DNA of 25,512 nucleotides from a virus (taxonomy: Duplodnaviria > Heunggongvirae > Uroviricota > Caudoviricetes), in IMG/VR virus record IMGVR_UViG_3300029461_000006, one strand, 5' to 3'. Shown here one piece after another: positions 1-24,863 of this stretch (its first letter is position 1; each line of letters begins with the position of its first letter). Under the pieces are notes generated by a model. The model saw only the letters and a list, made by a program, of their open reading frames with translations, had not been told where the DNA came from and searched no databases. The translations under genes were made by a program, and so were the position numbers.

Positions 1-2
1 AT

Positions 3-152
3 CACTTCGTTATTGCACCGACAGAAGATGAGGCCCGCTCTCAGCTTCCTGACGCCCCATGTATTTTCTCTGCCCGTTTTTCCACTGATTCACGCAATTC
101 TCTCAGTTACTGGTGCCTCCCTGTTAACGCTTCTGCTCAGGAGGGACTATGA
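3..152 (+). CDS. icd: icd-like (interference with cell division) protein, 5' end cut by the window edge
   Basis: Homologous to the 3' part of the 73-aa ORF at 7120-7341; stop overlaps the ant ATG in an ATGA junction, as in the P1 ImmI operon. Confidence 0.4.
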   Translation, partial: HFVIAPTEDEARSQLPDAPCIFSARFSTDSRNSLSYWCLPVNASAQEGL

Positions 153-1267
153 GAACGTCATTAGTCACCCGTGAAGAGATGATCGAGGCAATTGAACAGC
201 ACACTGCCTGTATCAGTACCAGGGATATACCAGGCGTTATTGCCAACTACTTCATGATCACCAAACAACTTTACCGGAGAAAGGACAAGAACGCGGTTCA
301 CCGTATCCTGTTGTCTGATATCCGCGAATACCTGCTCGAACAGGGTCATCTGAATTACGCAACCGCCGCAGCCGAAGCACGCAAGGAGGCACACAGAATG
401 AAAGCAACTAACGTTAAATCAGAAAAAATTCATGCACCTTCAGTTCAAGAATCGGAGCTGGTGGTTGTTCAGAATCAGTCTGATGAAATTCCCGTTCTGG
501 AATGGCAGGGAGTGCGTGTAGTGACAACCGAGACTCTTGCTAGAGGGTATGGGACAGAAACAATCCGTATTCGCCAAAATCATCATGAGAACAAAGTACG
601 CTTTGTTGAAGGGAAGCACTTTTTCAAAGTTGAAGGAGAATCATTGCGCGAGTTGAAGCACAGAGTAGCTTTAAACTACTCTGTAAAAATTGCTCGCAAT
701 GTTCGCTCACTCACCCTCTGGACAGAACGCGGCGCAGCCCGCCACGCTAAAATGCTCGAAACCGATCAGGCATGGGCATTCTTTGAAAAACTGGAAGACA
801 GCTACTTCCGACAAAAAGAACAGCAACCGATCGCAATCCCCCAGACGCTTCCTGAAGCCCTACGCCTGGCTGCCGAACTGGCTGAACAAAAGCAACTTCT
901 GGAACAGAAAGCCCACCAGCTAAATCAGCAGCTGGTGGCCGCCGCTCCTAAAGTCGATTTTGCCGACCGGGTATCAGTAGCTAAAGGGATCCTGATTGGG
1001 AATTTTGCAAAGGTTGTTGGACTTAAACAAAACGCGCTGTTTGTCTGGTTACGGGAGAACGGCATCCTGATAGCGTCCGGTGGACGTAAAAATGTGCCGT
1101 TCCAGCAGTACATCAACGCGGGGTATTTCACGGNNNNNNNNNNNNNNNNNNNNNNNNNNNNNNNCTACCAGATACGGTTGACGCCTCAATTAACGGGTAA
1201 AGGCCAGCAGTGGTTGACGCGTAAACTGCTCGATGCTGGCTTGTTAAAACCGGTGGCGGCTGAATAA
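149..1267 (+). CDS. ant1: Phage antirepressor (Ant-like, KilAC-type C-terminal domain), copy A; contains a 31-nt N mask
   Basis: 372-aa ORF with an AGGAGGG RBS; C-terminal region (…VAKGILIGNFAKVVGLKQNALF…GGRKNVPFQQYINAGYF) is typical of phage antirepressor KilAC domains; in-frame internal Met (MKATN) could give a shorter Ant2-like product; paralogous to 7338-8453. Confidence 0.7.
   Translation: MRTSLVTREEMIEAIEQHTACISTRDIPGVIANYFMITKQLYRRKDKNAVHRILLSDIREYLLEQGHLNYATAAAEARKEAHRMKATNVKSEKIHAPSVQESELVVVQNQSDEIPVLEWQGVRVVTTETLARGYGTETIRIRQNHHENKVRFVEGKHFFKVEGESLRELKHRVALNYSVKIARNVRSLTLWTERGAARHAKMLETDQAWAFFEKLEDSYFRQKEQQPIAIPQTLPEALRLAAELAEQKQLLEQKAHQLNQQLVAAAPKVDFADRVSVAKGILIGNFAKVVGLKQNALFVWLRENGILIASGGRKNVPFQQYINAGYFTXXXXXXXXXXXYQIRLTPQLTGKGQQWLTRKLLDAGLLKPVAAE
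1134..1164. other. Run of 31 N (masked or unresolved bases) inside ant copy A
   Basis: Literal n characters; the run is exactly the length of the corresponding segment in copy B (8323-8353), so it preserves the reading frame. Confidence 1.
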
Positions 1268-1274
1268 TAGAAGA

Positions 1275-1296
1275 ATGCCCGGTTGATGCCGGGCAT
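1275..1296. terminator. Hairpin (ATGCCCGG-loop-CCGGGCAT) between the convergent ant and c1 genes; candidate bidirectional terminator
   Basis: Perfect 8-bp inverted repeat with a 6-nt loop, lying between the ant stop (1267) and c1 stop (1300), followed by A/T-rich sequence. Confidence 0.4.
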
Positions 1297-1299
1297 AAT

Positions 1300-2151
1300 T
1301 TATTGCGCGCTTTCGGGGTTGTCGTTTACTGGCTGCCCCTTCTTGGTTTTACGGCTGCGCGTAACTGATGCGGCTGACTTAACCTTTTTCTCTTCGCGAG
1401 TGATGGCAATTTGTTTTTTTACATTTTCAATATCTGCCAGGCGATATATTTTTGCTTGCGGCCAGCGGTCGCAGATGATCGGTTCTATGGAGTCATAAAG
1501 GCTAAATTTTGCTTTTTCGAATTCACCGTTGATGATAATTCCATCACGGAGAGTTTCATCGCAGATAAACACGCCACACAGTGGCACATGGTAACTAACT
1601 GATTTACCATCATTGTAGTTAGGGCTACTGGAAATGTAGTGGACGCGCAGCATTGTTTCGCTAAAGCCGTGTACGCGCATACGGAATTTTTCATCCTCCG
1701 GGTACTGCTTCATTAGCTCTTTTGTTGCTTCCAGGTTCTCTATGTATTTCGCACTGTGCTCATTGATCCCCGCGCTTTTTTGGATGCGAATGTCCTTATC
1801 AATCAGATGAATAATGCGGCCAGCGGTCATGTTGACGCTGTTCACAGCTTCTGTCTGATAAGTTGTAACCTTACGCACACCGCGAAGGATGTTAGGCACT
1901 GGATATAAAATAGTCTTTGGGATATTGAGGTCTGGATACTGTTCCAGTTCCCGCGCCATTAAAGTCCATTTATCAATTTCAGCCTGAATGCTGTCCGTTT
2001 CTTTGAACGGCAGAACGACAACCGGGCGAACAGGACGACCGTCGCTGGCGGCATCAACGTGTTGGGCGCGTGCAACAGCTTTTTTTAGAAAGAGATCCCT
2101 GAAGCTGACGAACTCCTGGTACAGTTGTTCGCCGTAGACATAATTTATCAT
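1300..2151 (-). CDS. c1: C1 repressor of lysis (primary immunity repressor, ImmC)
   Basis: 283-aa ORF recognised as the P1 C1 repressor (MINYVYGEQLYQEF…); strong GGAGGAGG RBS; followed upstream by coi and 17-bp C1 operators. Confidence 0.92.
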   Translation of the reverse strand: MINYVYGEQLYQEFVSFRDLFLKKAVARAQHVDAASDGRPVRPVVVLPFKETDSIQAEIDKWTLMARELEQYPDLNIPKTILYPVPNILRGVRKVTTYQTEAVNSVNMTAGRIIHLIDKDIRIQKSAGINEHSAKYIENLEATKELMKQYPEDEKFRMRVHGFSETMLRVHYISSSPNYNDGKSVSYHVPLCGVFICDETLRDGIIINGEFEKAKFSLYDSIEPIICDRWPQAKIYRLADIENVKKQIAITREEKKVKSAASVTRSRKTKKGQPVNDNPESAQ

Positions 2152-2261
2152 TGATCCTCCTCCAGAATTGACATGGCCAACAACTCACAGCGGATTACAC
2201 TGGGAGTTGTTGGCCACCATTATAGAAGGATCCAACGAAAATAATAGATTTATTAGTGCAT

Positions 2262-2471
2262 TTATTGTGAGTCTGGCTGGTTAGTGGCCATGAGATATTC
2301 GATTGTGTCAGTGAGATCATCCAGGTCGTCTTGGGTGATGCGGTACTCCTGATTGGATATCTTTGAGTAGTGTTCAGCAATGGCGCGGGCAGCGTCGGTT
2401 TCGGCGGGGTCTACAGATAAAGCGTTAGAGCAATGTCTAACGTCGTCGATGGTTGGTGGAATGAAAGCCAT
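2262..2471 (-). CDS. coi: Coi, C1 inactivator
   Basis: 69-aa ORF directly upstream of c1 on the same strand, matching the P1 coi-c1 operon layout and size. Confidence 0.7.
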   Translation of the reverse strand: MAFIPPTIDDVRHCSNALSVDPAETDAARAIAEHYSKISNQEYRITQDDLDDLTDTIEYLMATNQPDSQ

Positions 2472-2709
2472 AATTATGCCTCACTGTATTGACAACACAG
2501 AGCCTGAAGCTCTGACCTACTGTTTCACCCATGATCCATGCTGGGGTAATCTAACAACATTGCGCTGTGTGTAAGATGAGCAATGCATAGCTGTAATGCC
2601 GTTGTATAAGGTTTCCCTGTTTGCTCATTTCCTTCTGAGCCGCTCTACAACGCTGAAGACACATTAAATAGTGAATCCAAAGTCGTATTACGAAACGGCG
2701 GCAAAACTA

Positions 2710-2726
2710 TAATTTATTAGAGCAAT
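2710..2726 (-). promoter_or_regulatory. C1 operator (Op99-type), minus strand
   Basis: Reverse complement reads ATTGCTCTAATAAATTA, 16/17 to the P1 C1 operator consensus ATTGCTCTAATAAATTT. Confidence 0.75.
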
Positions 2727-2792
2727 TGTCAAACAACTATGAAAAACAATCCAGTTTTTGGCTGGTGGAGTGGGATTTTTCTCTCAAAATTT

Positions 2793-2809
2793 ATTGCTCT
2801 AATAATTCT
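2793..2809 (+). promoter_or_regulatory. C1 operator (Op99-type), plus strand
   Basis: ATTGCTCTAATAATTCT, conserved ATTGCTCTAAT core; pairs with the operator at 2710-2726 upstream of coi-c1. Confidence 0.7.
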
Positions 2810-2852
2810 TGATTTTTATGCGCAGCTGGACGTAAACTCCTCTTCGGACCTA

Positions 2853-2886
2853 ATAACTTCGTATAGCATACATTATACGAAGTTAT
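2853..2886. other. loxP: loxP site-specific recombination site (34 bp)
   Basis: Exact ATAACTTCGTATA-GCATACAT-TATACGAAGTTAT: two 13-bp inverted arms around the 8-bp asymmetric spacer, about 420 bp upstream of cre. Confidence 0.97.
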
Positions 2887-2905
2887 ATTAAGGGTTATTG
2901 AATAT

Positions 2906-2978
2906 GATCAATTTACCTGTAAATCCATACAGTTCAATACCTTAGCAGGTCAAATAGTGATCACTTGATCATTTGATC
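2906..2978. promoter_or_regulatory. GATC (Dam site) cluster in the cra/cre upstream region
   Basis: Four GATC sites, three of them within 21 bp (2958-2978); consistent with the Dam-sensitive cre promoter described for P1. Confidence 0.45.
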
Positions 2979-2984
2979 AAGGTT

Positions 2985-3043
2985 GCGCTACGTAAAATCT
3001 GTGAAAAATTGGCGGTGTTAGTCCTACAGATTTCGCGTAGCGC
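2985..3043. repeat. Imperfect 18-bp inverted repeat (16/18) with a 23-nt spacer upstream of cra
   Basis: GCGCTACGTAAAATCTGT … ACAGATTTCGCGTAGCGC, read directly from the sequence. Confidence 0.6.
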
Positions 3044-3075
3044 ACTTAGCACCACCAATCAATCAGAGGTGAAAA

Positions 3076-3297
3076 ATGGGATATTCAACTGCTAAAGTGT
3101 CCACTCATCTTGAGCTTGAGAAAAACCGTGGTTACTGGCGGGCAAAAGGGTTTGATCGTGATAGTTGCCAACTGTCATTATCGCGCGGTGAAGAGAAAAT
3201 AGAACGCACGCGCGGTCGCTGGCGTTTCTATGACGAGAACCATAAACAGGTAAAGGCAGAGCCGATCCTGTACACTTTACTTAAAACCATTATCTGA
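3076..3297 (+). CDS. cra: Cra (cre-associated) small protein
   Basis: 73-aa ORF between loxP and cre, ending 8 nt before the cre ATG; matches the P1 position and size. Confidence 0.55.
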   Translation: MGYSTAKVSTHLELEKNRGYWRAKGFDRDSCQLSLSRGEEKIERTRGRWRFYDENHKQVKAEPILYTLLKTII

Positions 3298-3304
3298 GTG
3301 TTAA

Positions 3305-4336
3305 ATGTCCAATTTACTGACCGTACACCAAAATTTGCCTGCATTGCCGGTCGATGCAACGAGTGATGAGGTTCGCAAGAACCTGATGGATATGTTCAGG
3401 GATCGCCAGGCGTTTTCTGAGCATACCTGGAAAATGCTTCTGTCCGTTTGTCGGTCATGGGCGGCATGGTGCAAGTTGAATAACCGGAAGTGGTTTCCCG
3501 CAGAACCTGAAGATGTTCGCGATTATCTTCTATATCTTCAGGCGCGCGGTCTGGCAGTGAAAACTATCCAGCAACATTTGGGCCAGCTAAATATGCTTCA
3601 TCGTCGGTCCGGTCTGCCACGACCAAGTGACAGCAATGCTGTTTCACTGGTCATGCGACGGATCCGAAAAGAAAACGTTGATGCCGGTGAGCGTGCAAAA
3701 CAGGCGCTGGCGTTCGAACGCACTGATTTCGACCAGGTTCGTTCACTCATAGAAAATAGCGATCGCTGCCAGGATATACGTAATCTGGCATTTCTGGGGA
3801 TTGCTTATAACACCCTGTTACGTATAGCCGAAATTGCCAGGATCAGGGTCAAAGATATCTCACGTACTGACGGTGGGAGAATGTTAATCCATATTGGCAG
3901 AACGAAAACGCTGGTTAGCACCGCAGGTGTAGAGAAGGCACTTAGCCTGGGGGTAACTAAACTGGTCGAGCGATGGATTTCTGTCTCTGGTGTAGCTGAT
4001 GATCCGAATAACTACCTGTTTTGCCGCGTCAGAAAAAATGGTGTTGCCTCGCCATCATCCACCAGCCAGCTATCAACTCGCGCCCTGGAAGGGATTTTTG
4101 AAGCAACTCACCGATTGATTTACGGAGCTAAGGATGACTCTGGCCAGAGGTACCTGGCCTGGTCTGGACACAGTGCCCGTGTCGGTGCCGCGCGAGATAT
4201 GGCCCGCGCCGGAGTTTCAATACCGGAGATCATGCAAGCTGGTGGCTGGACCAACGTAAATATTGTCATGAACTACATTCGTAACCTGGATAGTGAAACG
4301 GGGGCAATGGTGCGCCTGCTGGAAGATGGCGATTAG
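3305..4336 (+). CDS. cre: Cre tyrosine site-specific recombinase
   Basis: 343-aa ORF recognised as Cre (MSNLLTVHQNLPALPVDATSDEVRKNLMDMFRDRQAFSEHTWKMLLSVCRSWAAWCKLNNRKWFPAEPEDVRDYLLYLQARGLAVKTIQQHLGQLNMLHRRSGLPRPSDSNAVSLVMRRIRKEN…); adjacent loxP. Confidence 0.98.
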   Translation: MSNLLTVHQNLPALPVDATSDEVRKNLMDMFRDRQAFSEHTWKMLLSVCRSWAAWCKLNNRKWFPAEPEDVRDYLLYLQARGLAVKTIQQHLGQLNMLHRRSGLPRPSDSNAVSLVMRRIRKENVDAGERAKQALAFERTDFDQVRSLIENSDRCQDIRNLAFLGIAYNTLLRIAEIARIRVKDISRTDGGRMLIHIGRTKTLVSTAGVEKALSLGVTKLVERWISVSGVADDPNNYLFCRVRKNGVASPSSTSQLSTRALEGIFEATHRLIYGAKDDSGQRYLAWSGHSARVGAARDMARAGVSIPEIMQAGGWTNVNIVMNYIRNLDSETGAMVRLLEDGD

Positions 4337-4353
4337 CCGTTCATTTGCGCCCG

Positions 4354-4370
4354 ATTGCTCTAATTATTTG
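4354..4370 (+). promoter_or_regulatory. C1 operator immediately downstream of cre
   Basis: ATTGCTCTAATTATTTG, conserved operator core; 17 nt upstream of the ORF at 4387. Confidence 0.7.
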
Positions 4371-4386
4371 ATATTTATGGTGACAT

Positions 4387-4698
4387 ATGCGGAAGGATTT
4401 CAAAATAGACGGAAAATATGTGGTGCTGTCTGTAAGCTCTCAAATTCAGTCACCATCTGTCATTGTCACCGTAAAGTTGAGCGATAGGATGCCTGATATC
4501 GACTCGATATCTGTTGCGTTCCCCGTTAAAAGCATGCGGAGTGCTGAACATTTTGTGCTGAATGCAACGGAGGAGGAAGCGCGGCGCGGGCTTACTAGAG
4601 TGATGGCGGAATTTGGCGAACTCCTGGGTAAGGTAAACAATTCCCTTTCAATCAGTTCAGCAAGATCCAAAGCGTTAACAGCTTCCTTGATGAAATAA
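4387..4698 (+). CDS. Hypothetical 103-aa protein in the position of P1 c8
   Basis: ORF between cre and ref preceded by a C1 operator; no motif I recognise. Assignment to c8 is positional only. Confidence 0.35.
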   Translation: MRKDFKIDGKYVVLSVSSQIQSPSVIVTVKLSDRMPDIDSISVAFPVKSMRSAEHFVLNATEEEARRGLTRVMAEFGELLGKVNNSLSISSARSKALTASLMK

Positions 4699-4828
4699 AA
4701 AAGCCTGGCAAGGAGCCAGGCTACACAAAAGAGCGGGTTTGTATTCCGCATCCAATCAATCAAGAAGGAGTATAGCACACAGGTACTGAAGTGAAAAAAT
4801 GTGATTCGCGATAAACAAAATATCTACC

Positions 4829-4858
4829 ATTGCTCTAATTGATTGCTATAATTGAGCC
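4829..4858 (+). promoter_or_regulatory. Tandem overlapping C1 operators with an embedded TATAAT (ref promoter region)
   Basis: ATTGCTCTAATTGATTG (4829-4845) overlapping ATTGCTATAATTGAGCC (4842-4858); TATAAT at 4847-4852. ref is known to be C1-controlled in P1. Confidence 0.7.
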
Positions 4859-4912
4859 GCAGTTTTTGTCAACTACGAAGACGTTGCCATTACTTAACTC
4901 CTTGACATCATT

Positions 4913-4938
4913 GGCGGCCATCAGGCCGCCTTTTTTTT
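4913..4938 (+). terminator. Intrinsic-terminator-like hairpin with a T8 tract, ending 5 nt before the ref ATG
   Basis: GGCGGCC-ATCA-GGCCGCC followed by TTTTTTTT. Confidence 0.6.
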
Positions 4939-4943
4939 GCCAT

Positions 4944-5504
4944 ATGAAAACAATCGAACAAAAAATTGAACAGCACCGTAAGTGGCAGAAGGCAGCCAGA
5001 GAACGAGCGATCGCTCGGCAACGGGAGAAGTTGGCTGATCCGGCCTGGCGAGAATCTCAATATCAGAAAATGCGGAATACTATCGACCGCCGTATCGCTA
5101 AACAGAAAGAGCGCCCACCAGCCAGCAAAACGCGGAAAAGCGCGGTAAAGATAAAATCTCGTGGCTTGAAGGGGCGAACACCGACAGCGGAGGAACGGAG
5201 CATCACCAATGCTCTTGGCGCTCTCCCCTGCATTGCCTGCTACATGCATGGAGTAATATCTGAAGAGGTATCTCTGCACCATATCTCCGGTCGTACCGCG
5301 CCGGGTTGTCACAAAAAGCAATTGCCCCTTTGTAGATGGCACCACCAGCATGCAGCACCGGCTGAAGTAAGAGAAAAATTCCCCTGGCTGGTCCCTGTTC
5401 ATGCTGATGGTGTGGTTGGAGGCAAGAAAGAATTCACCTTGCTGAACAAGTCAGAGATGGAGTTGCTGGCTGACGCCTATGAAATGGCAAACATCATGCA
5501 CTAA
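4944..5504 (+). CDS. ref: Ref recombination-enhancement protein (HNH-family nuclease)
   Basis: 186-aa product starting MKTIEQKIEQHRKWQ…; Cys/His-rich HNH-like segment (CIACYMHG…HHISGR…CHKKQLPLCRWHHQH). The longer 221-aa ORF in the track starts at a TTG inside the operator and is unlikely. Confidence 0.88.
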   Translation: MKTIEQKIEQHRKWQKAARERAIARQREKLADPAWRESQYQKMRNTIDRRIAKQKERPPASKTRKSAVKIKSRGLKGRTPTAEERSITNALGALPCIACYMHGVISEEVSLHHISGRTAPGCHKKQLPLCRWHHQHAAPAEVREKFPWLVPVHADGVVGGKKEFTLLNKSEMELLADAYEMANIMH

Positions 5505-5542
5505 TAAATATATTATTTTTAATCTTAAATGATTGACAACTG

Positions 5543-5552
5543 ACAAGTGACT
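5543..5552 (+). promoter_or_regulatory. ACAAGTGACT motif upstream of mat (candidate late-promoter box)
   Basis: The same core recurs upstream of prt/darB (21128-21148) and, reverse-complemented, upstream of lyz (24864-24873). Confidence 0.3.
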
Positions 5553-5570
5553 TGAGTCAGAATCATCACA

Positions 5571-5633
5571 CGCCCGGTACGGATGGATCCCTTTTCAAAT
5601 ATTCCATGGACGGCACAGTCTGAGTACCGGGCG
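5571..5633. repeat. Perfect 10-bp inverted repeat (CGCCCGGTAC … GTACCGGGCG) with a 43-nt spacer in the mat leader
   Basis: Read directly from the sequence. Confidence 0.6.
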
Positions 5634-5655
5634 CTACCTTCAGTTGTATTGCTAA

Positions 5656-5680
5656 GCCGCCGCTGGTGGCTTTTCTTTTT
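5656..5680 (+). terminator. Hairpin plus T-rich tract 14 nt upstream of the mat ATG (terminator or attenuator candidate)
   Basis: GCCGCC-GCT-GGTGGC (one G-U pair) followed by TTTTCTTTTT. Confidence 0.35.
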
Positions 5681-5693
5681 TATAGGGGGCGCT

Positions 5694-6335
5694 ATGGATA
5701 AGAAAATATGCGTTGTTTCGATGAGCGTCGGTAAACCGGCGTCAATGACTGCTGCATGGATCAACAACGAGTTGATAATGGCTGAGCGGACCAGCTACCC
5801 TGAACGCCGCCGCGATATGGAACTCCAGCTGCTGCGCGAATTGCGAGAAAAAGAGGAAAAGGGTTTTATCGTGCTGGTGGAAGAGGAAAACAGCTTTATT
5901 ACGGGTCGAGTTGGCCAGCGTGTAAGGTTGCGCGATCCCTTCATGAACGGCAGGCCGGTACTAATTGAAGCAATGCAGATTTACAAGGAGCTGGAACGCC
6001 AGAAAGCAATCAAGTTACCGCGCAAGGAATCCGGCAAATACATCCTCCACCAAAGCATCTTCGATTCCGAACACGATAAAAAAGGCGATGAATTTTTCAA
6101 CATCAACTGGAGCGAAATAACGACAGAGCATGTTCTGACGTTACTATGTTGCTTTGCGACGGAATACAACAACGTTGCAAGCGCCGACTACATCAGGGCA
6201 ATGGCTGGAGAAGTTGAGGCACGCCAGGAACCATCGTTACTAAGCCCTCTGATTAACATAATTCGCGGCACACAGAGACTTGCGGAAAAAAGAGTTCCAC
6301 ACGGAATCTTAACTGGAAAGGGAAACTATTTTTAA
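5694..6335 (+). CDS. mat: Mat (maturation control) protein
   Basis: Product starting MDKKICVVSM… with a GGGGG RBS; sits after ref as in P1. The track ORF starts earlier (5583) at a weaker start. Confidence 0.75.
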   Translation: MDKKICVVSMSVGKPASMTAAWINNELIMAERTSYPERRRDMELQLLRELREKEEKGFIVLVEEENSFITGRVGQRVRLRDPFMNGRPVLIEAMQIYKELERQKAIKLPRKESGKYILHQSIFDSEHDKKGDEFFNINWSEITTEHVLTLLCCFATEYNNVASADYIRAMAGEVEARQEPSLLSPLINIIRGTQRLAEKRVPHGILTGKGNYF

Positions 6336-6368
6336 CATCCCCAAATCCTTTTGGGGAACAACTCATGC

Positions 6369-6680
6369 TTACAATTTCTGCCCCATACATTTTCTCCAGG
6401 CACTCCCCTCATTACCGTTGCCGAGGAAAGTAGAGGTTGCATATGGAATGCCTCTGATTTGTGTTGATGTGAATGGACCATCAGACGTCGAAGTTGTGCG
6501 CAGTTTTGATGTAAACTCGTAATTTCCACTGATGCCTTTCTCTGCCAGAGCTTTTGATTTTGTGATAACTAAATCTGCACATTTCTCTGCGGCTACATAT
6601 TGCGGGTCTTTTTCAGCTTTTCCGGCACATGCAGTTATCGTTAAAACAATAGCTGCGGCTAACAAATTACCTGGTTTCAT
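6369..6680 (-). CDS. Small predicted lipoprotein (103 aa), divergent from the ImmI-like operon
   Basis: N-terminal signal peptide with lipobox (MKPGNLLAAAIVLTITAC|AGK); AAGGT RBS; no recognisable catalytic motif. Confidence 0.6.
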   Translation of the reverse strand: MKPGNLLAAAIVLTITACAGKAEKDPQYVAAEKCADLVITKSKALAEKGISGNYEFTSKLRTTSTSDGPFTSTQIRGIPYATSTFLGNGNEGSAWRKCMGQKL

Positions 6681-6785
6681 CTGAATACCTTATTAAGTGC
6701 ATTAAAAACAGTAGGTTGCCAAGGTTTTAAACAAATTTCAATTCCCCATGACGCTCAACATGAGCAAAAATAACACACAAACATC

Positions 6786-6802
6786 ATTGCTCTAATTAAT
6801 TT
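6786..6802 (+). promoter_or_regulatory. C1 operator (Op51-like) at the head of the ImmI-like operon
   Basis: ATTGCTCTAATTAATTT, 16/17 to consensus; candidate sigma70 promoters follow (TTGATC 6844-6849 / TATAGT 6867-6872, 17-bp spacer). Confidence 0.7.
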
Positions 6803-6930
6803 GATTTTTTAGGTCAAATAAACTACCATTGCGCACTGCCCTATTGATCTCCTTACCGTTCAGGCTTATAGTTCCTACGTCGTAGCAAATTCTGCGACCG
6901 GGTTTAGCAGCCTGAATGTACATGCGGACA

Positions 6931-6960
6931 ACCGCAGATATCCGATATTGCGGTATTTTT
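6931..6960 (+). terminator. Hairpin plus T5 tract between the a1/b1 boxes and the c4 candidate (attenuator or terminator candidate)
   Basis: ACCGCAGATAT-CCG-ATATTGCGGT (one bulged G) followed by ATTTTT. Confidence 0.3.
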
Positions 6961-6990
6961 GTGTCCGTAAAACCACGTTACGCCCGAATT

Positions 6991-7070
6991 ATGGTGGGGC
7001 GTGATGGGGAGGCTTCGGCCTGCTGGTTTCATGTACGCCAGTCTGCTAACCCCGTCACGTCCTGCCACCC
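6991..7070 (+). ncRNA. c4: Candidate c4-type antisense RNA (secondary immunity repressor); boundaries approximate
   Basis: About 80-nt segment closed by GGTGG/CCACC; contains CATGTAC (7030-7036) and CTGCTAAC (7043-7050), complementary to the repeated TGTACATG and GTTTAGCAGC boxes at 6902-6924 and 7071-7108, the latter overlapping the icd RBS. Confidence 0.45.
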
Positions 7071-7119
7071 GTTTAGCAGCGGGTAGCAGGTTGTTAAACC
7101 TGTACATGAGGCCGTAACT

Positions 7120-7341
7120 ATGGTTAATGCCAATCCTTGCGCACGCCCGGAATTCATCTGGCGTTTCTATTCTTGTCAAAAACGTCACTATCACTTCGTT
7201 ATCGCACCGACAGAAGATGAGGCCCGCTCTCAGCTTCCTGACGCCCCATGTATTTTCTCTGCCCGTTTTTCCACTGATTCACGCAATTCTCTCAGTTACT
7301 GGTGCCTCCCTGTTAACGCTTCTGCTCAGGAGGGACTATGA
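7120..7341 (+). CDS. icd: Icd-like small protein, translationally coupled to ant
   Basis: 73-aa ORF with a GAGG RBS inside the a2/b2 target region; stop overlaps the ant start (ATGA). A 78-aa alternative in another frame (7127-7363) overlaps ant by 26 nt and fits the coupled layout less well. Confidence 0.5.
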   Translation: MVNANPCARPEFIWRFYSCQKRHYHFVIAPTEDEARSQLPDAPCIFSARFSTDSRNSLSYWCLPVNASAQEGL

Positions 7342-8480
7342 GAACATCGTTAGTTACCCGTGAAGAGATGATCGAGGCAATTGAACAGCACACTGCCTGT
7401 ATCAGTACCAGGGATATACCTGGCGTTATTGCCAACTACTTCATGATCACCAAACAACTTTACCGGAGAAAGGACAAGAACGCTGTTCACCGTATCCTGC
7501 TGTCTGATATCCGTGAATACCTGCTCGAACAGGGGCATCTGAATTACGCAACCGTCGCAGCCGAAACACGCAAGGAGGCACACAGAATGAAAGCAACTAA
7601 CTTTAAATCAGAAAAAATTCATGCACCTTCAGTTCAGGAATCGGAGCTGGTGGTTGTTCAGGATCAGCATGATGAAATTCCCGTTCTGGAGTGGCAGGGG
7701 GTGCGTGTAGTGACAACCGAGACTCTTGCTAAAGGGTATGGGACAGAAACAATCCGTATTCGCCAGAATCATCATGAGAACAAAGTGCGCTTTGTTGAAG
7801 GGAAGCACTTTTTCAAGGTTATTGGCGATGAGCTGAAAAATTTGCGGGTAGCTTTAAACTACTCACAAAATCCAGTCTCACCCAAAGCCCGCTCACTCAC
7901 TCTCTGGACAGAACGCGGCGCTGCCCGCCACGCTAAAATGCTCGAAACCGATCAGGCATGGGCGTTCTTTGAAAAACTGGAAGACAGCTACTTCCGACAA
8001 AAAGAACAGCAACCGATCGCAATCCCCCAGACGCTTCCCGAAGCACTGCGCCTGGCTGCCGAACTGGCTGAACAAAAGCAACTATTGGAACAGAAAGCCC
8101 ACCAGCTAAATCAGCAGCTGGTGGCCGCCGCTCCTAAAGTCGAGTTTGCCGACCGGGTATCAGTAGCTAAAGGGATCCTGATTGGGAATTTTGCAAAGGT
8201 TGTTGGACTTAAGCAAAACGCGCTGTTTGCCTGGTTACGGGAGAACGGCATCCTGATAGCGTCCGGTGGACGTAAAAATGTGCCGTTCCAGCAGTACATC
8301 AACGCGGGGTATTTCACGGTGAAAGAAGTGGTGCTGGATGATGAAGATGGCTACCAGATACGGTTGACGCCTCAATTAACGGGTAAAGGCCAGCAGTGGT
8401 TGACGCGTAAACTGCTCGATGCTGGCTTGTTAAAACCGGTGGCGGCTCAATAATGGAAGAATGCCCGGTTGATGCCGGGC
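7190..8480 (+). repeat. Copy B of the ~1.29-kb diverged direct repeat (icd 3' end + ant + hairpin)
   Basis: Collinear with 1-1294; differences include a clustered divergent patch at 7820-7906 (copy A 631-720). Confidence 0.9.
7338..8453 (+). CDS. ant1: Phage antirepressor (Ant-like, KilAC-type), copy B, within a complete ImmI-type module
   Basis: 371-aa ORF with an AGGAGGG RBS; same family as 149-1267; internal in-frame Met as a candidate Ant2 start; preceded by operator, c4 candidate and icd. Confidence 0.75.
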   Translation: MRTSLVTREEMIEAIEQHTACISTRDIPGVIANYFMITKQLYRRKDKNAVHRILLSDIREYLLEQGHLNYATVAAETRKEAHRMKATNFKSEKIHAPSVQESELVVVQDQHDEIPVLEWQGVRVVTTETLAKGYGTETIRIRQNHHENKVRFVEGKHFFKVIGDELKNLRVALNYSQNPVSPKARSLTLWTERGAARHAKMLETDQAWAFFEKLEDSYFRQKEQQPIAIPQTLPEALRLAAELAEQKQLLEQKAHQLNQQLVAAAPKVEFADRVSVAKGILIGNFAKVVGLKQNALFAWLRENGILIASGGRKNVPFQQYINAGYFTVKEVVLDDEDGYQIRLTPQLTGKGQQWLTRKLLDAGLLKPVAAQ

Positions 8481-8483
8481 AAA

Positions 8484-8492
8484 GGGGGGGGG
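8484..8492. repeat. G9 homopolymer at the junction between the ant terminator and the lxc relic
   Basis: Nine consecutive G; the equivalent position next to intact lxc (13623-13626) has GGGG. Confidence 0.95.
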
Positions 8493-8494
8493 AA

Positions 8495-8595
8495 TTAATC
8501 AGCATTCAGGAGCAATGCGTTATCTATGATGATCTGCTCCCATTCTTCGAATGCCCGATCGCGGACGCCCTAGGGAACACTGTCTGTTTTGAAAT
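8495..8595 (-). pseudogene. Relic of the lxc 3' end (last ~33 codons) with an in-frame stop, abutting the res 3' end
   Basis: 101 nt at about 90% identity to 13631-13731. Minus-strand translation gives FKTDSVP*GVRDRAFEEWEQIIIDNALLLNAD* against lxc FKTNSVPQGVRDRAFEEWEQIIIDNALLLNAD*; 8 of the 10 differences are synonymous. Confidence 0.6.
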
Positions 8596-8626
8596 AAGGA
8601 GGTTTTCACCTCCTTTTAAACTGGAA

Positions 8627-11539
8627 TTATGGTAATGCGCTCTTGATTAGCTGATAAATATCATCATTAGCAAACTGCGTTCTGAATTCAACTTTAACAG
8701 ACCGACTTATTTGATTGAAAAGCGCCTGGGCATGTTCAATTTTCCGTTTTTCTTCAAGCCGTAAACTATCCTTACTATCTACGTTTTTTGTTTCAATGAT
8801 AAAGTTAAGATAATCACCTTCTGCTGTTTTTACAACATAAGCAAAATCGGGTGAGTAAGTGTATCCACCAGCTACCGGGATCTTAATAGAATTCTTCGGT
8901 ATCTTTGAAAAAACAACAACAGACTGGATCTCTCTATCTGTTATATTACGCCTTTCAAGCTCTGAATCATAAAAAACTTCTTCAAAAAGATAAGTATCTA
9001 ATGGTGCTTTTGCATTATCCTGCAATACACCAAGATCACTTGATAATACCTCATCTAGAGGATTACCATCAGCATTTGTGAACTTTGTAGGATGAATTGA
9101 ACCCGAAATCAAATTATATCCGAGGCTGAATTTGTTAAACGAATTGTTCAACAAATACTTACTAAAACCAGATTTAATTTTTCTGATTGTTTGAATATTA
9201 AGGTATTCAGTGATATTAATAGTGTCTTTTATATCACAAAAAACTTTATGTAAAGTATCGTGTTTAACAAAAATAGTTTGTGATAAGTTATCGAGAAACT
9301 CTCGATAGCTCATTGTGTTTAGCTTAGCAAAGTCATCGTCATCACTGACAATGCTTTTCGACATTGCCATATCATTGTGGATGTAAATTTTATCAATGCG
9401 AGTATGAACGCCTGATTTGGTAAATCGTTCTGTTTCTTCGAGCATGAATGACTTGAAAATGGATAAAAATTCACTTTCACTGTTTATTTTGTACTCAATC
9501 ACCGCTTTTTGATTGATCAAATCCCATAGTTCTTTCAGCTCACTGAACTTACCAACACGCATTTTAGTGCGTCTTTTTCCATCAGTAGCTTTTTTGATTT
9601 TACCAGGTTTCACTCCTATAGGGAATGCTGCTGGATATTTGGATTTTAAGCGGCTATATGCATCTGAATCTTTGAAATTATCATTGTCATCAATGATTTC
9701 ATCATTGAAAAGTTCATTCATTAGTGCTCTGGATGAAAGCTCAGGATACTGAGCCCTGATTTGTTCCTTAAGCTCTTGAGTAAACTTACTTGGAACCCTT
9801 TCTTTGAAAGAACTCTCGTTGACCTCTTTAACAAGTGAGTCAACAAAATCTTTTTCTGTAAAATCAACATAATAGTTGAGAGTGAAATTGCGATCTTTCA
9901 CTCGACACATGTATTCATTCACAGGAAGACGCAAACCGCGCCCTACCTCTTGAAGCTTAGATGTGGTACTACCGCTCGAACGGAGCTTACAGATCTGAAA
10001 GACATTAGGATTATCCCACCCCTCACGCAACGTCCATTTTGAGAAAATAAACCGACGGGGATTATCTAAAGACAGCAAAAGCTCTTTGTCATGAAGGATT
10101 TCGTTGATTTCCTGCTCGATTTTATCATCCTTATCACTGTTATCTTTTGAGAAATAACCACCATGAACGGAAGATATATCTTTGACTGTTTTTTCAAGAT
10201 AGTTTTTATAAAACGCATCTTGCTCTGTTTTTAACAGTTCATTAGCTTCTGCCAGAACGTATTCTTCGAATTTGGTTTTCAGGCTTCCGGCAATATCATT
10301 ACCGTCACGATAGCCTTCAATATCGTCAATAAAGAAAAGAGTAAGAGGCTTTATGCGTGGCCTTTGTGTCAGAAGTTCTTTTTCTAACTTAAAGTGTTCT
10401 TTGACAGCCTTACGCATCATATTATCAGCAAGTGTCTGATCGTAAGAATAGGGATTTATTGAGCTACCAATCTTCAGCTCAATACCATTACTCAACACTG
10501 CTGTGCTCTTGTTTAAAGCATCAAGAGTTAAATCATGGATCGCACTATGCGTCTTAGACAGTGATTCACCTTTAGCTAACTTAAACGTTTTTTTATTGTT
10601 GTTTTCATTCAGTTCAAATGTAGCTTCTTTTCCGTCAGATTTGACGAATTTGAGGTTTGCGTTACCATCGCCGACTATATCCTCAATATATGCATCAATA
10701 CCTTTAACGAGATCCTCGTTAAATGCGTCCACGGCTGTAAGACGATAAACCAGGTTCTTATAGCCTTCGCTAAAGGTTGCGCCATAGCGGATAATATATT
10801 GTGCGTTAAATTTCTCTATGTTTTCCCATGTTTTTTTACCAGTAGGAAATCTATGTGGTTCGTCAATGATGATAAATGGTTTTACAGCTCTGAGCGCGTC
10901 AACTGGAGTATTAAACTGATTATCAAGCAAGCCAGTATCGTAAGTATCCGTTAAAGACTTAGAGTTGATCATTCCTGAGTTAATAACAAGAACGTGTATA
11001 TATTTTTTATTGAAGTTACTTGCTTCAACAAAATCATGTATAGCCTGAGGCATATACGATTTTGTATTTTTGCCAGAGTTTTTCTGACTTTCAACAACGT
11101 AAGTTCTCAGCTCACGCTCGTAATCATCCCGGAAGTGTTCTTTTAAAGCATCACTTTTTAAAAAGTTAACGGTTCCGGCCTTGATAGATAGAGTCGGAAC
11201 AATGATGATAAACTTGTTAATACCAAATGATTTATTCAGGTCAAAAATAGTTTTGGTATAGGTGTACGTCTTGCCTGTACCTGTCTCCATAGAAACATCA
11301 ATGATGTTGCTTTTAGCATCGTAATTATCTTTTGAGTGCTCAATACCATTAAACTCCTGAACATTTTTTATGTTGTTGTAGTATTGTTGTTCAGATAGTT
11401 CCAGTTCTGGATTAGCTAACAGGCGAATAGTAACATTATCCGTCAGGTGAGGTATTGCGGAAACAAAAACATTCATCACCGCATCGACTCCGGCTTTCTG
11501 ATGCGGCAAGTTCTTTTCGAGAGTGAACCCTTTTGACAT
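8627..11539 (-). CDS. res: Type III restriction-modification Res subunit (SF2 helicase/endonuclease, EcoP1I-type)
   Basis: 970-aa ORF recognised as P1 Res; Walker A (METGTGKTY) and DEPH box (IIIDEPHRF); start lies 2 nt after the mod stop (translational coupling). Confidence 0.93.
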   Translation of the reverse strand: MSKGFTLEKNLPHQKAGVDAVMNVFVSAIPHLTDNVTIRLLANPELELSEQQYYNNIKNVQEFNGIEHSKDNYDAKSNIIDVSMETGTGKTYTYTKTIFDLNKSFGINKFIIIVPTLSIKAGTVNFLKSDALKEHFRDDYERELRTYVVESQKNSGKNTKSYMPQAIHDFVEASNFNKKYIHVLVINSGMINSKSLTDTYDTGLLDNQFNTPVDALRAVKPFIIIDEPHRFPTGKKTWENIEKFNAQYIIRYGATFSEGYKNLVYRLTAVDAFNEDLVKGIDAYIEDIVGDGNANLKFVKSDGKEATFELNENNNKKTFKLAKGESLSKTHSAIHDLTLDALNKSTAVLSNGIELKIGSSINPYSYDQTLADNMMRKAVKEHFKLEKELLTQRPRIKPLTLFFIDDIEGYRDGNDIAGSLKTKFEEYVLAEANELLKTEQDAFYKNYLEKTVKDISSVHGGYFSKDNSDKDDKIEQEINEILHDKELLLSLDNPRRFIFSKWTLREGWDNPNVFQICKLRSSGSTTSKLQEVGRGLRLPVNEYMCRVKDRNFTLNYYVDFTEKDFVDSLVKEVNESSFKERVPSKFTQELKEQIRAQYPELSSRALMNELFNDEIIDDNDNFKDSDAYSRLKSKYPAAFPIGVKPGKIKKATDGKRRTKMRVGKFSELKELWDLINQKAVIEYKINSESEFLSIFKSFMLEETERFTKSGVHTRIDKIYIHNDMAMSKSIVSDDDDFAKLNTMSYREFLDNLSQTIFVKHDTLHKVFCDIKDTINITEYLNIQTIRKIKSGFSKYLLNNSFNKFSLGYNLISGSIHPTKFTNADGNPLDEVLSSDLGVLQDNAKAPLDTYLFEEVFYDSELERRNITDREIQSVVVFSKIPKNSIKIPVAGGYTYSPDFAYVVKTAEGDYLNFIIETKNVDSKDSLRLEEKRKIEHAQALFNQISRSVKVEFRTQFANDDIYQLIKSALP

Positions 11540-11541
11540 GA

Positions 11542-13500
11542 TTAGTTCCTCACCACCAAATCTAACTCAATAGATTTTTTATTAGCATAACTTTTTAGTG
11601 CTTCATTGAGTTCCATTTGCTTTGCGCTTTCAAAGTTGCTGCCATAAAACACGATTTTGTTTGGAGCAAAGTCTTTGTCTGAATCCACCTTTTGAAGTAA
11701 CGCTTTCAATGCTTCGCTAGTAAAATTAGGTGCAATCAAATACAGACGACCATCGCACAAATGTGCTTTGTAGCCACCAAGATCAACATCTTCAATAGGT
11801 GTTGTTAGCAAACTGCCATCATACAGGCACCATGTAGTTAATAGAGTGTCATATTGTTCAGGCGTCAAGACAACATCATCAAAGAATGTATGATTAGACA
11901 GTGTAAGTTCTGATTCGTCTTTAGCGCGAAAATCTGGCATTAATTGGTAAATTTTAAAGCCAAACTTACCACTTCCCTCACAAACTCTAATTAATCTTTC
12001 TTTGGTTAGGTCATAAATGGTTTTAAAACCATGCTTAAAAGCATCAGAATTATCTTTTGTATCCTCATCTAATTGAACAGTTATGAATTGATAATTCATG
12101 CCTTTTTCTTTGTTTAAGTTTAAAATAGCATGCGCTGTTGTACCCGAACCTGCAAAAAAATCCAATACAATACCTTTGCCATCACATGCAAAAGAGATCA
12201 ATTCTTCAAGTAGTTTAATGGTTTTAGGGTTAGTGAAAGGCTTAGTCATTTCAGGGAAAATTGCTTTTAGCTCATTAGCCCCGGCTCGACCATCAATATT
12301 AATAACAGAACTTAACTTCTGCTTATAGTCTTTAGCATAAACCTTTATTTCCACTAATTTATTTTCATCTTCACCAAAGATAATCCGCCCATCATCAATC
12401 ATTTTTAGCATAGTAGCTTCAGGGAAGCGATATCCCATCAAAGGCTGCTTGCAAGGTTTCTTTGTTATTGGATGAATAATATCATACCGATATCCTTCTT
12501 TACCGGGGTTATGAATCCCCCTCTCCCCAGAATATACACCTTTACGGTCTATGAACTTATAATTTTCCAGAGGCCATAATTGACTTTTGTTTTCTCTAAA
12601 CCACTTTGTGTACTCTTCCTGTAATTTTTCGTCATCTTTTATGTCATTAATTAATGAATCCCCTACTTCAACAAGCAAATCCTTTACATCTGAGATGTTT
12701 GACTTCCACTCAGTTTCAATTAATTCTTTATTTCTAGCATAAACAACAATATATTCATGTTCTACAGCAATGTTCGACGGATTGTTATCTGTAACATTTT
12801 TCCAGACGATGTCTCCGATGTGATTTTGTTCACCAAAAATCTCATCGCAAACTAGCTTTAATTGACTAAACTCATTGTCATCAATAGAAATAAAAATAGT
12901 CCCATCTTCTCTCATTAATTCACGAGCAATATAAAGGCGTGGGTAAATGAATGTCAGCCATGCACTATGACTGCTTGACCCCTTGGTGGTAAATTCTAAT
13001 ATGCGTTTAGCCTCATCGAGGTCGATGCCTGCAAGTTCAGAAAGCTGCTCAGGTGTAAATTTGCGATCATCATTATAAACGAACCCATCCTTACCTGTAT
13101 TGTATGGTGGGTCAATGTAAATCATCTTCACCTTTTCAGCGTAAGCATTAACCATATGCTTCAATACTTCGAGATTATCCCCTTTGATTAACAGGTGTTG
13201 ACTGTTCTTGTTCTCTTCTTGTTGGTTATGTGTTTTATCTTCTGCCAACAACGTTTTCGGTGGTAGATTGGCCAACAAACGGGCATAAGATTTACCCAGC
13301 CAGTTTAAGCTGTATGATTCTCTAGAGAGTTCAACCTCCGATGCTCTAATAATCTCAAGCAATTTTTCTTGAATGAAGGCTCCGTTTTTATCAAAACACT
13401 GTGGGAAATTAGCTTTCAACACAGCCAGTTGCTTGCTGTTAGCCGTTTCTACTTCGGAAAAAATCGTTTCTTTTTTCATATCCATTTTAAACCAGATCAT
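11542..13500 (-). CDS. mod: Type III restriction-modification Mod subunit (N6-adenine DNA methyltransferase, EcoP1I-type)
   Basis: DPPY motif (IYIDPPYN) and AdoMet-binding FxGxG (FFAGSGTT); directly upstream of res. True start may be an internal Met (MDMKKET… or MKKET…), since the track ORF is slightly longer than the roughly 646 aa I recall for P1 Mod. Confidence 0.92.
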   Translation of the reverse strand: MIWFKMDMKKETIFSEVETANSKQLAVLKANFPQCFDKNGAFIQEKLLEIIRASEVELSRESYSLNWLGKSYARLLANLPPKTLLAEDKTHNQQEENKNSQHLLIKGDNLEVLKHMVNAYAEKVKMIYIDPPYNTGKDGFVYNDDRKFTPEQLSELAGIDLDEAKRILEFTTKGSSSHSAWLTFIYPRLYIARELMREDGTIFISIDDNEFSQLKLVCDEIFGEQNHIGDIVWKNVTDNNPSNIAVEHEYIVVYARNKELIETEWKSNISDVKDLLVEVGDSLINDIKDDEKLQEEYTKWFRENKSQLWPLENYKFIDRKGVYSGERGIHNPGKEGYRYDIIHPITKKPCKQPLMGYRFPEATMLKMIDDGRIIFGEDENKLVEIKVYAKDYKQKLSSVINIDGRAGANELKAIFPEMTKPFTNPKTIKLLEELISFACDGKGIVLDFFAGSGTTAHAILNLNKEKGMNYQFITVQLDEDTKDNSDAFKHGFKTIYDLTKERLIRVCEGSGKFGFKIYQLMPDFRAKDESELTLSNHTFFDDVVLTPEQYDTLLTTWCLYDGSLLTTPIEDVDLGGYKAHLCDGRLYLIAPNFTSEALKALLQKVDSDKDFAPNKIVFYGSNFESAKQMELNEALKSYANKKSIELDLVVRN

Positions 13501-13622
13501 TTAGCAACAAAGCGCCGCCTCCCCAGCCCGTTAGAGCCAGAAGTTGTGGCACTATCACTATCTATATGTTTGAAGAATCGTGCTTCTTTGAGCGATGCTC
13601 GGTGAGCAAACAGCCATAATTT

Positions 13623-13731
13623 GGGGAAGTTTAATCCGCATTGAGAAGCAATGCATTATCTATGATGATCTGCTCCCATTCTTCGAATGCCCGGTCACGG
13701 ACGCCCTGGGGAACGCTGTTAGTTTTGAAAT
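13623..13731. repeat. Direct-repeat partner of 8486-8595 (authentic lxc 3' end plus downstream sequence)
   Basis: Together the two copies bracket the mod-res cassette in direct orientation. Confidence 0.85.
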
Positions 13732-13879
13732 CGACGACCGTACGCCATTTCCCGTCCGGACGGTACATGCGCAGAGCTTTACTTCCCCCTTCCCTGCGCA
13801 CCTCAACGTTATGCTTGTCAGCAAACTCTTGTAATGCTCGTAGCGTCCCATGCTTTACTGTGTAGTATCGCTTTTTCAA
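13631..13879 (-). CDS. lxc: Lxc/Bof, modulator of C1 repressor binding (ImmT)
   Basis: 82-aa ORF of the size and position (between mod and ulx/darB) of P1 lxc; overlaps the ulx stop by 4 nt. Confidence 0.7.
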   Translation of the reverse strand: MKKRYYTVKHGTLRALQEFADKHNVEVRREGGSKALRMYRPDGKWRTVVDFKTNSVPQGVRDRAFEEWEQIIIDNALLLNAD

Positions 13880-14316
13880 GTTTTCTCTCCAGCCTGTGCC
13901 AAGGCTTCAACTTCCAAATCGTAAGACTCAAACTCATAGTACTGGTCGTCAACTTCTTCAGGCACTGGCAGTAAATGCCAGGCTGAGTATATCTGACCAT
14001 TATCAAAACGCTCCTGGCTGTAGAGCGTCGCGGCTATGAGCGTCAGCGCCGGGCGGTCATAACGGTAAATTTTGCGAACGTCACGGTCAACGAGACGACC
14101 GAAATTACCATAACCGCGCTCCAGTAATAATTTTTTAATTTCCGGCCAGTATGGACCATAGCTGCGGTACAGGCGGGGATTTTTCAGTAATCGCCCGCGT
14201 AGCCCTGACAGGAAGAAATCAACGTATTCGTCTTCTGTCTTTCCTAACAACGCTGTACGGAGTACCGCCTCAAGATATGTTTTATTCGGTTTTATTGTAT
14301 CAGATAGTGTGGCCAT
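13876..14316 (-). CDS. ulx: Ulx (upstream of lxc) protein
   Basis: 146-aa ORF between darB and lxc on the same strand, as in P1. Confidence 0.65.
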   Translation of the reverse strand: MATLSDTIKPNKTYLEAVLRTALLGKTEDEYVDFFLSGLRGRLLKNPRLYRSYGPYWPEIKKLLLERGYGNFGRLVDRDVRKIYRYDRPALTLIAATLYSQERFDNGQIYSAWHLLPVPEEVDDQYYEFESYDLEVEALAQAGEKT

Positions 14317-14349
14317 ATTATGCGACGCCCGGCGAACCGGGCGCTCCTG

Positions 14350-21117: not shown

Positions 21118-21127
21118 TGGTAATCCT

Positions 21128-21148
21128 TAACAAGTGACTAGTGTTAAA
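21128..21148. promoter_or_regulatory. Near-palindromic element TTAACAAGTGACTAGTGTTAA in the darB/prt divergent intergenic region
   Basis: Perfect 6-bp outer arms (TTAACA/TGTTAA); shares the ACAAGTGA core with sites upstream of mat and lyz. Candidate shared late-promoter element. Confidence 0.35.
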
Positions 21149-21183
21149 TTCCGTTCAAACACGATGTGAATTATTCTAATTAA

Positions 21184-23914
<2,731 letters not shown>

Positions 23915-23925
23915 CCACCAAAAAT

Positions 23926-23947
23926 AACCCCGGCGGCTGCCGGGGTT
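23926..23947 (-). terminator. Hairpin (CCCCGG-loop-CCGGGG) with a T-rich tract on the minus strand; terminator for the lyz transcript
   Basis: On the minus strand the hairpin is followed by TTATTTTT; lies between the convergent pro (stop 23914) and the small minus-strand ORF (stop 23959). Confidence 0.5.
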
Positions 23948-23958
23948 CTCGTTAACTA

Positions 23959-24763: not shown

Positions 24764-24863
24764 AAAGACCTCATAAGCGAATTTTTTACGCTCCAGGACA
24801 AACACCCATTCACAGCCAATACCGACTGACTCGATCCCTTTAGAAGGCACAGGATAATGCAAA

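Follow-up and report, generated by a model that had tools for sequence, protein, structure and literature searches.

An ImmI-type c4-icd-ant cassette, probably supernumerary and with a predicted third C4 specificity, between mat and res of a P1-like phage-plasmid

In Enterobacteriaceae, P1-like phage-plasmids commonly carry resistance genes. In P1 and P7, the antisense RNA C4 is processed from the c4-icd-ant transcript and pairs with the a2 and b2 boxes at the icd ribosome site, blocking the translation of icd. The block also stops ant, via coupling and premature termination, and the antirepressors Ant1 and Ant2 bind and inactivate the repressor C1. The working of this locus, ImmI, is said to have been described by Citron and Schuster in 1990, Biere and colleagues in 1992, and Heinrich and colleagues in 1995. 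Here, we analyzed a stretch of viral DNA of 25,512 nt (IMG/VR record IMGVR_UViG_3300029461_000006), referred to as the window; coordinates are window positions unless another record is named. Its open reading frame (ORF) map and a blastn comparison with the P1 reference (NC_005856) identify it as a segment of a P1-like phage-plasmid. Between mat and res it carries a complete ImmI-type operon, which we consider likely to be a supernumerary cassette, working in an ImmI-like manner and lodged in a cargo hotspot between mat and lxc/res (RD-1).

Insertions of this kind are not new to the literature. Venturini et al. 2019 (PMC6906374) mention "homologs of P1 icd-ant1/2" in RD-1 of pSvP1 and its relatives CP021336 and CP021340, and, "as in RCS47", an insertion of ant that lies between pacB and c1. 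In its retrieved parts, icd and ant1/2 are the only elements named for the insertion, with no C4 RNA or specificity, and our literature search returned no other paper treating more than one C4 specificity among P1-like plasmids. GenBank annotations of relatives also name icd and ant genes of such insertions. The extra cassettes themselves are already common in sequenced P1-like plasmids; new with respect to the literature, as far as retrieved, are the mat-side cassette's own C4 RNA with its third b-box specificity, the free combination of specificity classes (4 × 2), and their stacking in one element.

In the P1 reference, mat (2716-3468) is separated from res (3544-6456) by a gap of 75 bp, and ImmI lies 45 kb away at 48.1-49.7 kb, in agreement with the P1 map given in an earlier sequence-only reading of the window. 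The corresponding interval in the window, from the end of mat at 6335 to the end of res at 8627, measures 2.29 kb. On both sides the DNA follows P1 closely: by blastn, window 2870-6336 is 95.8% identical to P1 1-3469, window 8593-11934 is 91.3% identical to P1 3510-6851, and window 12902-25419 is 98.4% identical to P1 9021-21537. No counterpart of window 6337-8590 was found by blastn at the mat-res site of P1 or P7.

The interval holds, in the order proposed by the sequence-only reading and at or near the positions it gave, a C1 operator, paired a and b boxes, a C4 RNA, icd, and ant (Table 1). Sites resembling the C1 operator with at most three mismatches occur eight times in the window, against 0.15 expected from shuffled sequences. 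The Rfam C4 model (RF01695) matches 6987-7072 over its full length with 71.7 bits (gathering score 45). The predicted fold of the RNA (−45.4 kcal/mol, z = −5.4) places b' in a hairpin loop and a' in a joint that stays single-stranded. Boxes a1 and a2 are identical, as are b1 and b2, and at both target sites they are exact 7 + 7 nt complements of a' and b'. The icd stop overlaps the ant1 start (ATGA, 7338-7341). ORFs 6916-7086 and 7127-7363 were rejected as genes; they lie in other frames over c4 and icd and have no family match.

Going by its homology to the P1 and P7 loci, a C1-controlled and a constitutive promoter would give a single c4-icd-ant RNA, and the 77-nt C4 RNA would be excised from its leader. 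The b' loop CAUGUAC and the a' joint CUGCUAA would then block icd translation by pairing, at its ribosome-binding site, with b2 and a2. Repression would extend to ant through translational coupling and premature termination by Rho-dependent polarity, keeping Ant off in the lysogen. Upon entry into a cell without the cognate C4, Icd and Ant1/Ant2 would be made, and Ant would bind and inactivate C1. The element probably has two other specificities already, as its closest relative does, and the cassette would in this way add a further one.

The specificity is predicted to be a third one beside those of P1 and P7. Module alignment gives boxes a TTGACAG and b GTTAGTG (RNA GUUAGUG) for P1, a TTAGCAG and b GATTGTG (RNA GAUUGUG) for P7, and a TTAGCAG and b GTACATG for this cassette. 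Its C4 shares 73 of 77 nt with P7 C4, and all four differences fall in the b' loop and are mirrored in b1 and b2. In terms of a'/b', the P1 class reads CUGUCAA/CACUAAC and the P7 class CUGCUAA/CACAAUC; the a' of the cassette is that of P7, and its b' CAUGUAC is neither. Because the b boxes differ at three to four of seven positions, we expect the C4 RNAs of P1 and P7 not to act on the cassette, nor its C4 on their modules.

The pairing is borne out by covariation. We scanned IMG/VR with a pattern in which the C4 stems were fixed and the loops free, and obtained 103 loci; the window and other collected loci brought the set to 109 modules, and two further additions to 111. These modules fall into eight specificity classes, built from four b' loops and two a' variants, and the class of the present cassette accounts for 10 of the 111. 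The predicted a and b boxes were present both upstream and downstream of C4 in all complete modules (105 of 107 at that tally, the other two being cut by the end of the locus). Among 33 distinct modules, taken from P1, plasmid ECdb0007_p3, E. coli and E. albertii plasmids, and IMG/VR contigs, all 462 cells of the a'-a2/b'-b2 and a1-a'/b1-b' pairings were Watson-Crick or G-U paired. Seven of the 14 pairs had changed on both sides and none on one side only, while in a control with the partner slid by one to three columns only 26-50% of the cells paired. Since the target boxes were absent from the search pattern, this covariation was not built in by the scan.

What else these elements carry bears on whether such a cassette is the relocated ImmI or an additional one. 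The sequence-only reading took ImmI itself to have moved beside ImmC and ImmT, and a sole functional ImmI transferred from sim-kilA to mat-res would indeed link the three loci physically: c1, the mat-side module, and lxc all lie within 12.6 kb (about 14 kb had been proposed), the canonical locus lies off-window, and in pSvP1, as Venturini et al. 2019 (PMC6906374) note, a modified ImmI coincides with the gain of icd-ant in RD-1. However, two ant modules are already present in the window, the second being cut by the window start. The closest relative, plasmid ECdb0007_p3 (locus L001 in our collection), is 99.4% identical over window 6300-8595 and has three modules, namely pacB-[isrK-like leader, C4, icd, ant]-c1, mat-[lipoprotein ORF, C4, icd, ant]-lxc, and a canonical P7-type sim-C4-icd-ant-kilA-repL. 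Three IMG/VR contigs of about 97-103 kb with a mat-adjacent module keep a second module, which belongs to a different class and is preceded by sim or pmgC markers; a fourth (the UMNF18 plasmid) has a second, different-class module at about 46 kb, the coordinate expected for the canonical site, in a locus too short to show the flanking genes. Finally, of the 26 modules with the b' loop AUGUA (final tally), 15 are inverted between c8 and mat, five lie directly after mat, one is canonical, one lies between pacB and c1, and four could not be assigned to a site. A single canonical occurrence points to a separate cassette lineage. P1-type and P7-type loops are found nearly all at the canonical site. 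We regard relocation as improbable and, given the second copy in the window, the canonical ImmI of the closest relative, and the second modules of the long contigs, favor a supernumerary cassette. The proposal of a rearranged or mosaic immunity architecture thus stands in part: the module is complete, it is absent at this site from P1 and P7, and it comes with an lxc relic and a mosaic ant, but a rearrangement of ImmI itself is not supported; the cassette is probably extra.

The second icd'-ant copy makes window 1-1295 a direct repeat of 7190-8481 (repeat search), about 92% identical with 300-nt stretches at 98-99%. Pairwise and sliding-identity comparison shows the divergence of the two ant copies to be patchy and concentrated in the central ORF6N segment, with both frames open; the patchiness suggests past exchange between ant alleles. 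An assembly duplication was rejected as the origin of the two copies on these grounds: a difference of about 8%, patchy divergence, and frames kept open. The second copy sits between pacB, which is off-window, and c1, and the same insertion is found in RCS47, vB_EcoM-673R5, and ECdb0007_p3. In the last, the pacB-c1 module has a more divergent C4 (L001 5393-5583, 75.9 bits), and its leader matches Rfam isrK with 60.8 bits rather than c4-a1b1; the isrK-like leader links this module to the Gifsy-type isrK/antirepressor loci of Salmonella. The icd'-ant repeats bracket a 7.2-kb segment with c1, coi, lox-cre, c8, ref, and mat, and recombination between them would excise the repressor gene together with lox-cre.

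The mat-side cassette is also recurrent and ordinary for P1-like plasmids. The block from mat to lxc', with the lipoprotein ORF, c4, icd, and ant, occurs in 14 complete E. coli genomes, all without res-mod, and in one variant helix-turn-helix (HTH) and DUF3944 genes are added after ant. The mat-lxc interval behaves as a cargo hotspot, in which we found a SIR2-family gene (pE2865-1, locus L007, 4655-5959), a RelA/SpoT-family gene (L003, 12458-13006), and the HTH and DUF3944 genes (L113, 3801-5024). The SIR2-family and RelA/SpoT-family genes look like putative defence genes.

The antirepressor of the cassette is a mosaic. Ant1 is 55% identical to P1 Ant1 overall (BLASTP). Its N-terminal 83 amino acids, which are specific to Ant1, are homologous to P1 Ant1 at about 66% amino acid identity, and its C-terminal KilAC portion of about 140 amino acids at about 90%. 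The middle portion of about 145 amino acids holds an ORF6N domain in place of the P1 sequence, and Ant proteins of the P1 and P7 types have ANT only. Within this region, window 7755-7871 (117 nt) is 90.6% identical to the ant of many Stx1- and Stx2-converting (Shiga toxin-encoding) lambdoid phages. The likeness indicates a domain exchange between P1-like and lambdoid antirepressors, the middle of ant being of a different antirepressor lineage. An ORF6N domain acquired from lambdoid phages could have retargeted Ant to a repressor other than C1, such as that of a co-resident lambdoid prophage, with inter-prophage warfare or cross-induction, and not P1 immunity, as the outcome. The absence of ORF6N from the P1 and P7 types, the stretch shared with Stx-converting phages, and the fact that the central segment is the most variable part among paralogues would fit this; the N-terminus and the KilAC C-terminus are nevertheless held in common with P1 Ant1, and the operon retains a C1 operator. 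We consider retargeting unlikely, and an Ant directed at C1, as part of an ImmI-like cassette, remains our preferred reading.

Downstream of ant follow, in order, a hairpin, a 9-G tract, a relic of lxc (lxc'), and the P1-type hairpin that follows res. The tract (8483-8491), between the ant hairpin and the lxc relic, has eight G residues in ECdb0007_p3 and is prone to sequencing error or slippage. ORF 8453-8635, opposite the relic, has no family match and was rejected as a gene. The exact ant-lxc'-res junction was not found in PLSDB, complete E. coli genomes, IMG/VR, JGI metagenomes, or GTDB representatives, and megablast of 8250-8950 against PLSDB and the complete E. coli genomes returned no record covering at least 80%. 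The parts on either side occur separately in other plasmids: the mat-to-lxc' block as described above, and the lxc'-res cassette in E. albertii and pO111-type plasmids, behind other cargo (SIR2 or a hypothetical gene). Both observations would fit a chimeric assembly of two co-resident P1-like plasmids sharing about 100 bp of lxc 3' sequence. Such a join would nonetheless need two switches, given that the DNA on either side (1-8595 and 13623-25419) matches the one relative ECdb0007_p3 at 98-99% identity. In addition, about 10% of positions distinguish the two lxc copies. Moreover, these copies of the lxc 3' end (8491-8590 and 13631-13731) are direct repeats that flank res-mod. The lxc of ECdb0007_p3 (L001 14189-14295) is a hybrid, with lxc'-type single-nucleotide polymorphisms at its 3' end, then an identical stretch of 40 nt, then lxc-type ones. 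Because this is the expected product of a deletion between the repeats, it implies that ECdb0007_p3, which has no res-mod, lost its type III restriction-modification genes by repeat-mediated deletion from a window-type ancestor. We consider an assembly chimera very improbable, and the cassette and its junction with mat are in any case independent of the res join.

Several points weigh against a supernumerary cassette with an ImmI-like mechanism. The canonical ImmI lies outside the window, and we infer its co-residence in this element from relatives only. The a box is common to P7-type modules, and a P7-type C4 residing in the same cell might partly cross-talk with the cassette. In its middle third, Ant bears no relationship to P1 Ant and resembles antirepressors of lambdoid Stx phages, which could give it a target other than C1. 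In ECdb0007_p3, the ant of the mat-side module is annotated as broken, in a record with many frameshift calls. Taking all this together, the cassette is, by its sequence, real and intact, and it is probably functional.

Among its neighbours, the lipoprotein-like ORF that diverges from the c4 operon matches phrog_16031, of unknown function, with E = 1e-66, and relatives annotate it as hypothetical. It had no Pfam or NCBIfam match, and tblastn against 50,697 phage records returned no homologue. Since it occupies the place that sim has in P1 and the lipoprotein upf50.5 has in P7, we regard it as a candidate superinfection-exclusion factor. Further downstream, the central part of mod (11934-12902) has no blastn similarity to P1 mod, with flanks that are 91-98% identical, and no IS5 lies there. 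It is probably a different target-recognition domain, and the type III specificity would then be other than that of EcoPI. At three sites, ant is convergent on a lysogeny gene that lies no more than a few tens to a few hundred bases away: the pacB-side copy on c1 (1267-1300), the mat-side copy on lxc in relatives without res-mod (L001 14154-14195), and the inverted copy on c8 (L007 1792-2032). This placement may reflect tolerated 3'-end insertion sites, or transcriptional interference upon derepression of the cassette.

Table 1 Positions of the mat-side c4-icd-ant cassette and of other features in the window
Feature	Position	Strand	Basis and remarks
Second icd'-ant module, cut by window start	icd' 1-152; ant 149-1267 (372 aa)	+	Convergent with c1; Pfam ORF6N + ANT
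c1	1300-2151	minus	ORF map; followed by coi, imc, lox
cre	3305-4336		ORF map; followed by c8 and ref
mat	5583-6335		ORF map
Lipoprotein-like ORF, 103 aa	6369-6680	minus	ORF list and translation (MKPGNLLAAAIVLTITAC..., lipobox ITAC in LTITAC); diverges from c4 operon
Complete ImmI-type operon	6786-8453	+	C1 operator, a1/b1 leader, C4, a2/b2, icd, nested ant1/ant2
C1 operator (Op51 equivalent)	6786-6802	+	ATTGCTCTAATTAATTT; one mismatch to consensus ATTGCTCTAATAAATTT; aligns to annotated P1 Oc4/P2c4
P51a-like promoter, overlapped by C1 operator	-35 TTTGAT 6800-6805; -10 TACCAT ~6824-6829	+	Placed via P1 alignment
P51b-like constitutive promoter	6844-6872	+	TTGATC/17-nt spacer/TATAGT; promoter scan; aligns to annotated P1c4 (P51b)
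Leader with a1/b1	6866-6924	+	Rfam c4-a1b1 (RF03163) at 6866-6918, 53.2 bits, gathering score 46.7
a1	6904-6910	+	TTAGCAG
b1	6918-6924	+	GTACATG
C4 antisense RNA, 77 nt	6993-7069	+	Extent set by alignment to mature P1 C4
b' (in C4)	7030-7036	+	CAUGUAC
a' (in C4)	7043-7049	+	CUGCUAA
a2	7073-7079	+	TTAGCAG
b2	7102-7108	+	GTACATG; abuts icd Shine-Dalgarno GAGG (7108-7111)
icd, cell-division-inhibitor/coupling ORF, 73 aa	7120-7341	+	NF033153, 49.8 bits; phrog_1426, full length
ant1, 371 aa	7338-8453	+	Pfam ORF6N + ANT (KilAC); phrog_63
ant2-like in-frame internal start	ATG 7587	+	Preceded by AAGGAGG; Met84, conserved in P1 Ant1
lxc' relic, non-coding, 100 nt	8491-8590	minus	Last ~33 lxc codons; 90% identical to 13631-13731; repeat search, blastn to P1 lxc
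P1-type hairpin downstream of res	~8590-8610		Alignment with relatives
res	8627-11539	minus	ORF map
mod	11542-13500	minus	ORF map
lxc	13631-13879	minus	ORF map; followed by ulx, darB, prt, pro

P1-like phage-plasmids accumulate extra antirepressor cassettes, and the four substitutions in one C4 loop, mirrored in two target boxes, offer a clean natural example of evolving specificity in antisense-RNA immunity. A single ImmI at the P1 map position should not be assumed when a P1-like genome is annotated. Where two modules co-reside they are never of the same class, but the roughly 10 pairs are too few for significance, the chance at random being about 12% as estimated from class frequencies. Should cassettes of different classes be orthogonal, superinfection, coexistence, and displacement among P1-like elements would be predictable from how many C4 modules they carry and of which classes. 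Going further, we tentatively entertain the possibility that P1-like phage-plasmids bear a combinatorial RNA "immunity barcode" of at least four b-box by two a-box variants, stacking two to three orthogonal cassettes around ImmC-lox-cre. Each extra cassette might then act as a shield, its C4 silencing the Ant of a wider range of incoming relatives, and as a weapon, its Ant escaping the C4 of a wider range of resident ones and breaking C1 immunity, with convergent read-through possibly interfering with lysogeny genes.

The cassette can be compared with the ImmI loci themselves and with insertions in other plasmids. It has its parts in the order of P7 ImmI (NC_050152, 50.85-52.45 kb) and shares with it 73 of 77 nt of C4, the TTAGCAG a boxes, the icd-ant overlap, the nested ant2 start, and a lipoprotein gene diverging from c4 (upf50.5 in P7). 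It differs in b' (CACAAUC in P7, CAUGUAC here), in the ORF6N domain that P7 Ant lacks, and in its site, which in P7 is upstream of kilA-repL. P1 ImmI (48.14-49.73 kb) is about 79% identical at the nucleotide level from the operator through icd to the 5' part of ant1 and about 81% over the KilAC end, and all its annotated elements have counterparts here; the a and b boxes, the middle of Ant, and the map position 45 kb away are different, and P1 sim is replaced by the unrelated lipoprotein ORF. The neighborhood of sim (or its replacement), kilA, and repL is not found around the cassette, this position being a property of the P1 map and not of the mechanism, and the known account of how ImmI works is unchanged by these findings.

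The RD-1 icd-ant insertions of pSvP1 and of CP021336 and CP021340, the latter two being plasmids of Shiga toxin-producing E. coli, have the same genes at the same site after mat, replacing or adjoining res-mod; CP021336 and CP021340 are about 95% identical to the window region, and p321-pO111 has a pSvP1-like version with the HTH and DUF3944 genes added. The RD-1 plasmids of Venturini et al. 2019 have no res-mod, whereas the cassette in the window coexists with res-mod through the lxc' relic. The pacB-c1 insertion of RCS47 and pTZ20_1P carries a paralogous icd-ant with ORF6N and KilAC, and window 1-1267 is that insertion; it differs in site and, in ECdb0007_p3, in the more divergent C4 behind the isrK-like leader. 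Finally, the inverted c4-icd-ant between c8 and mat of pO111-type plasmids such as pE2865-1 has a b' of the same AUGUA class and the lxc'-res cassette downstream, but it runs the other way, takes the place of ref, and is accompanied by a SIR2 gene located between mat and lxc'.

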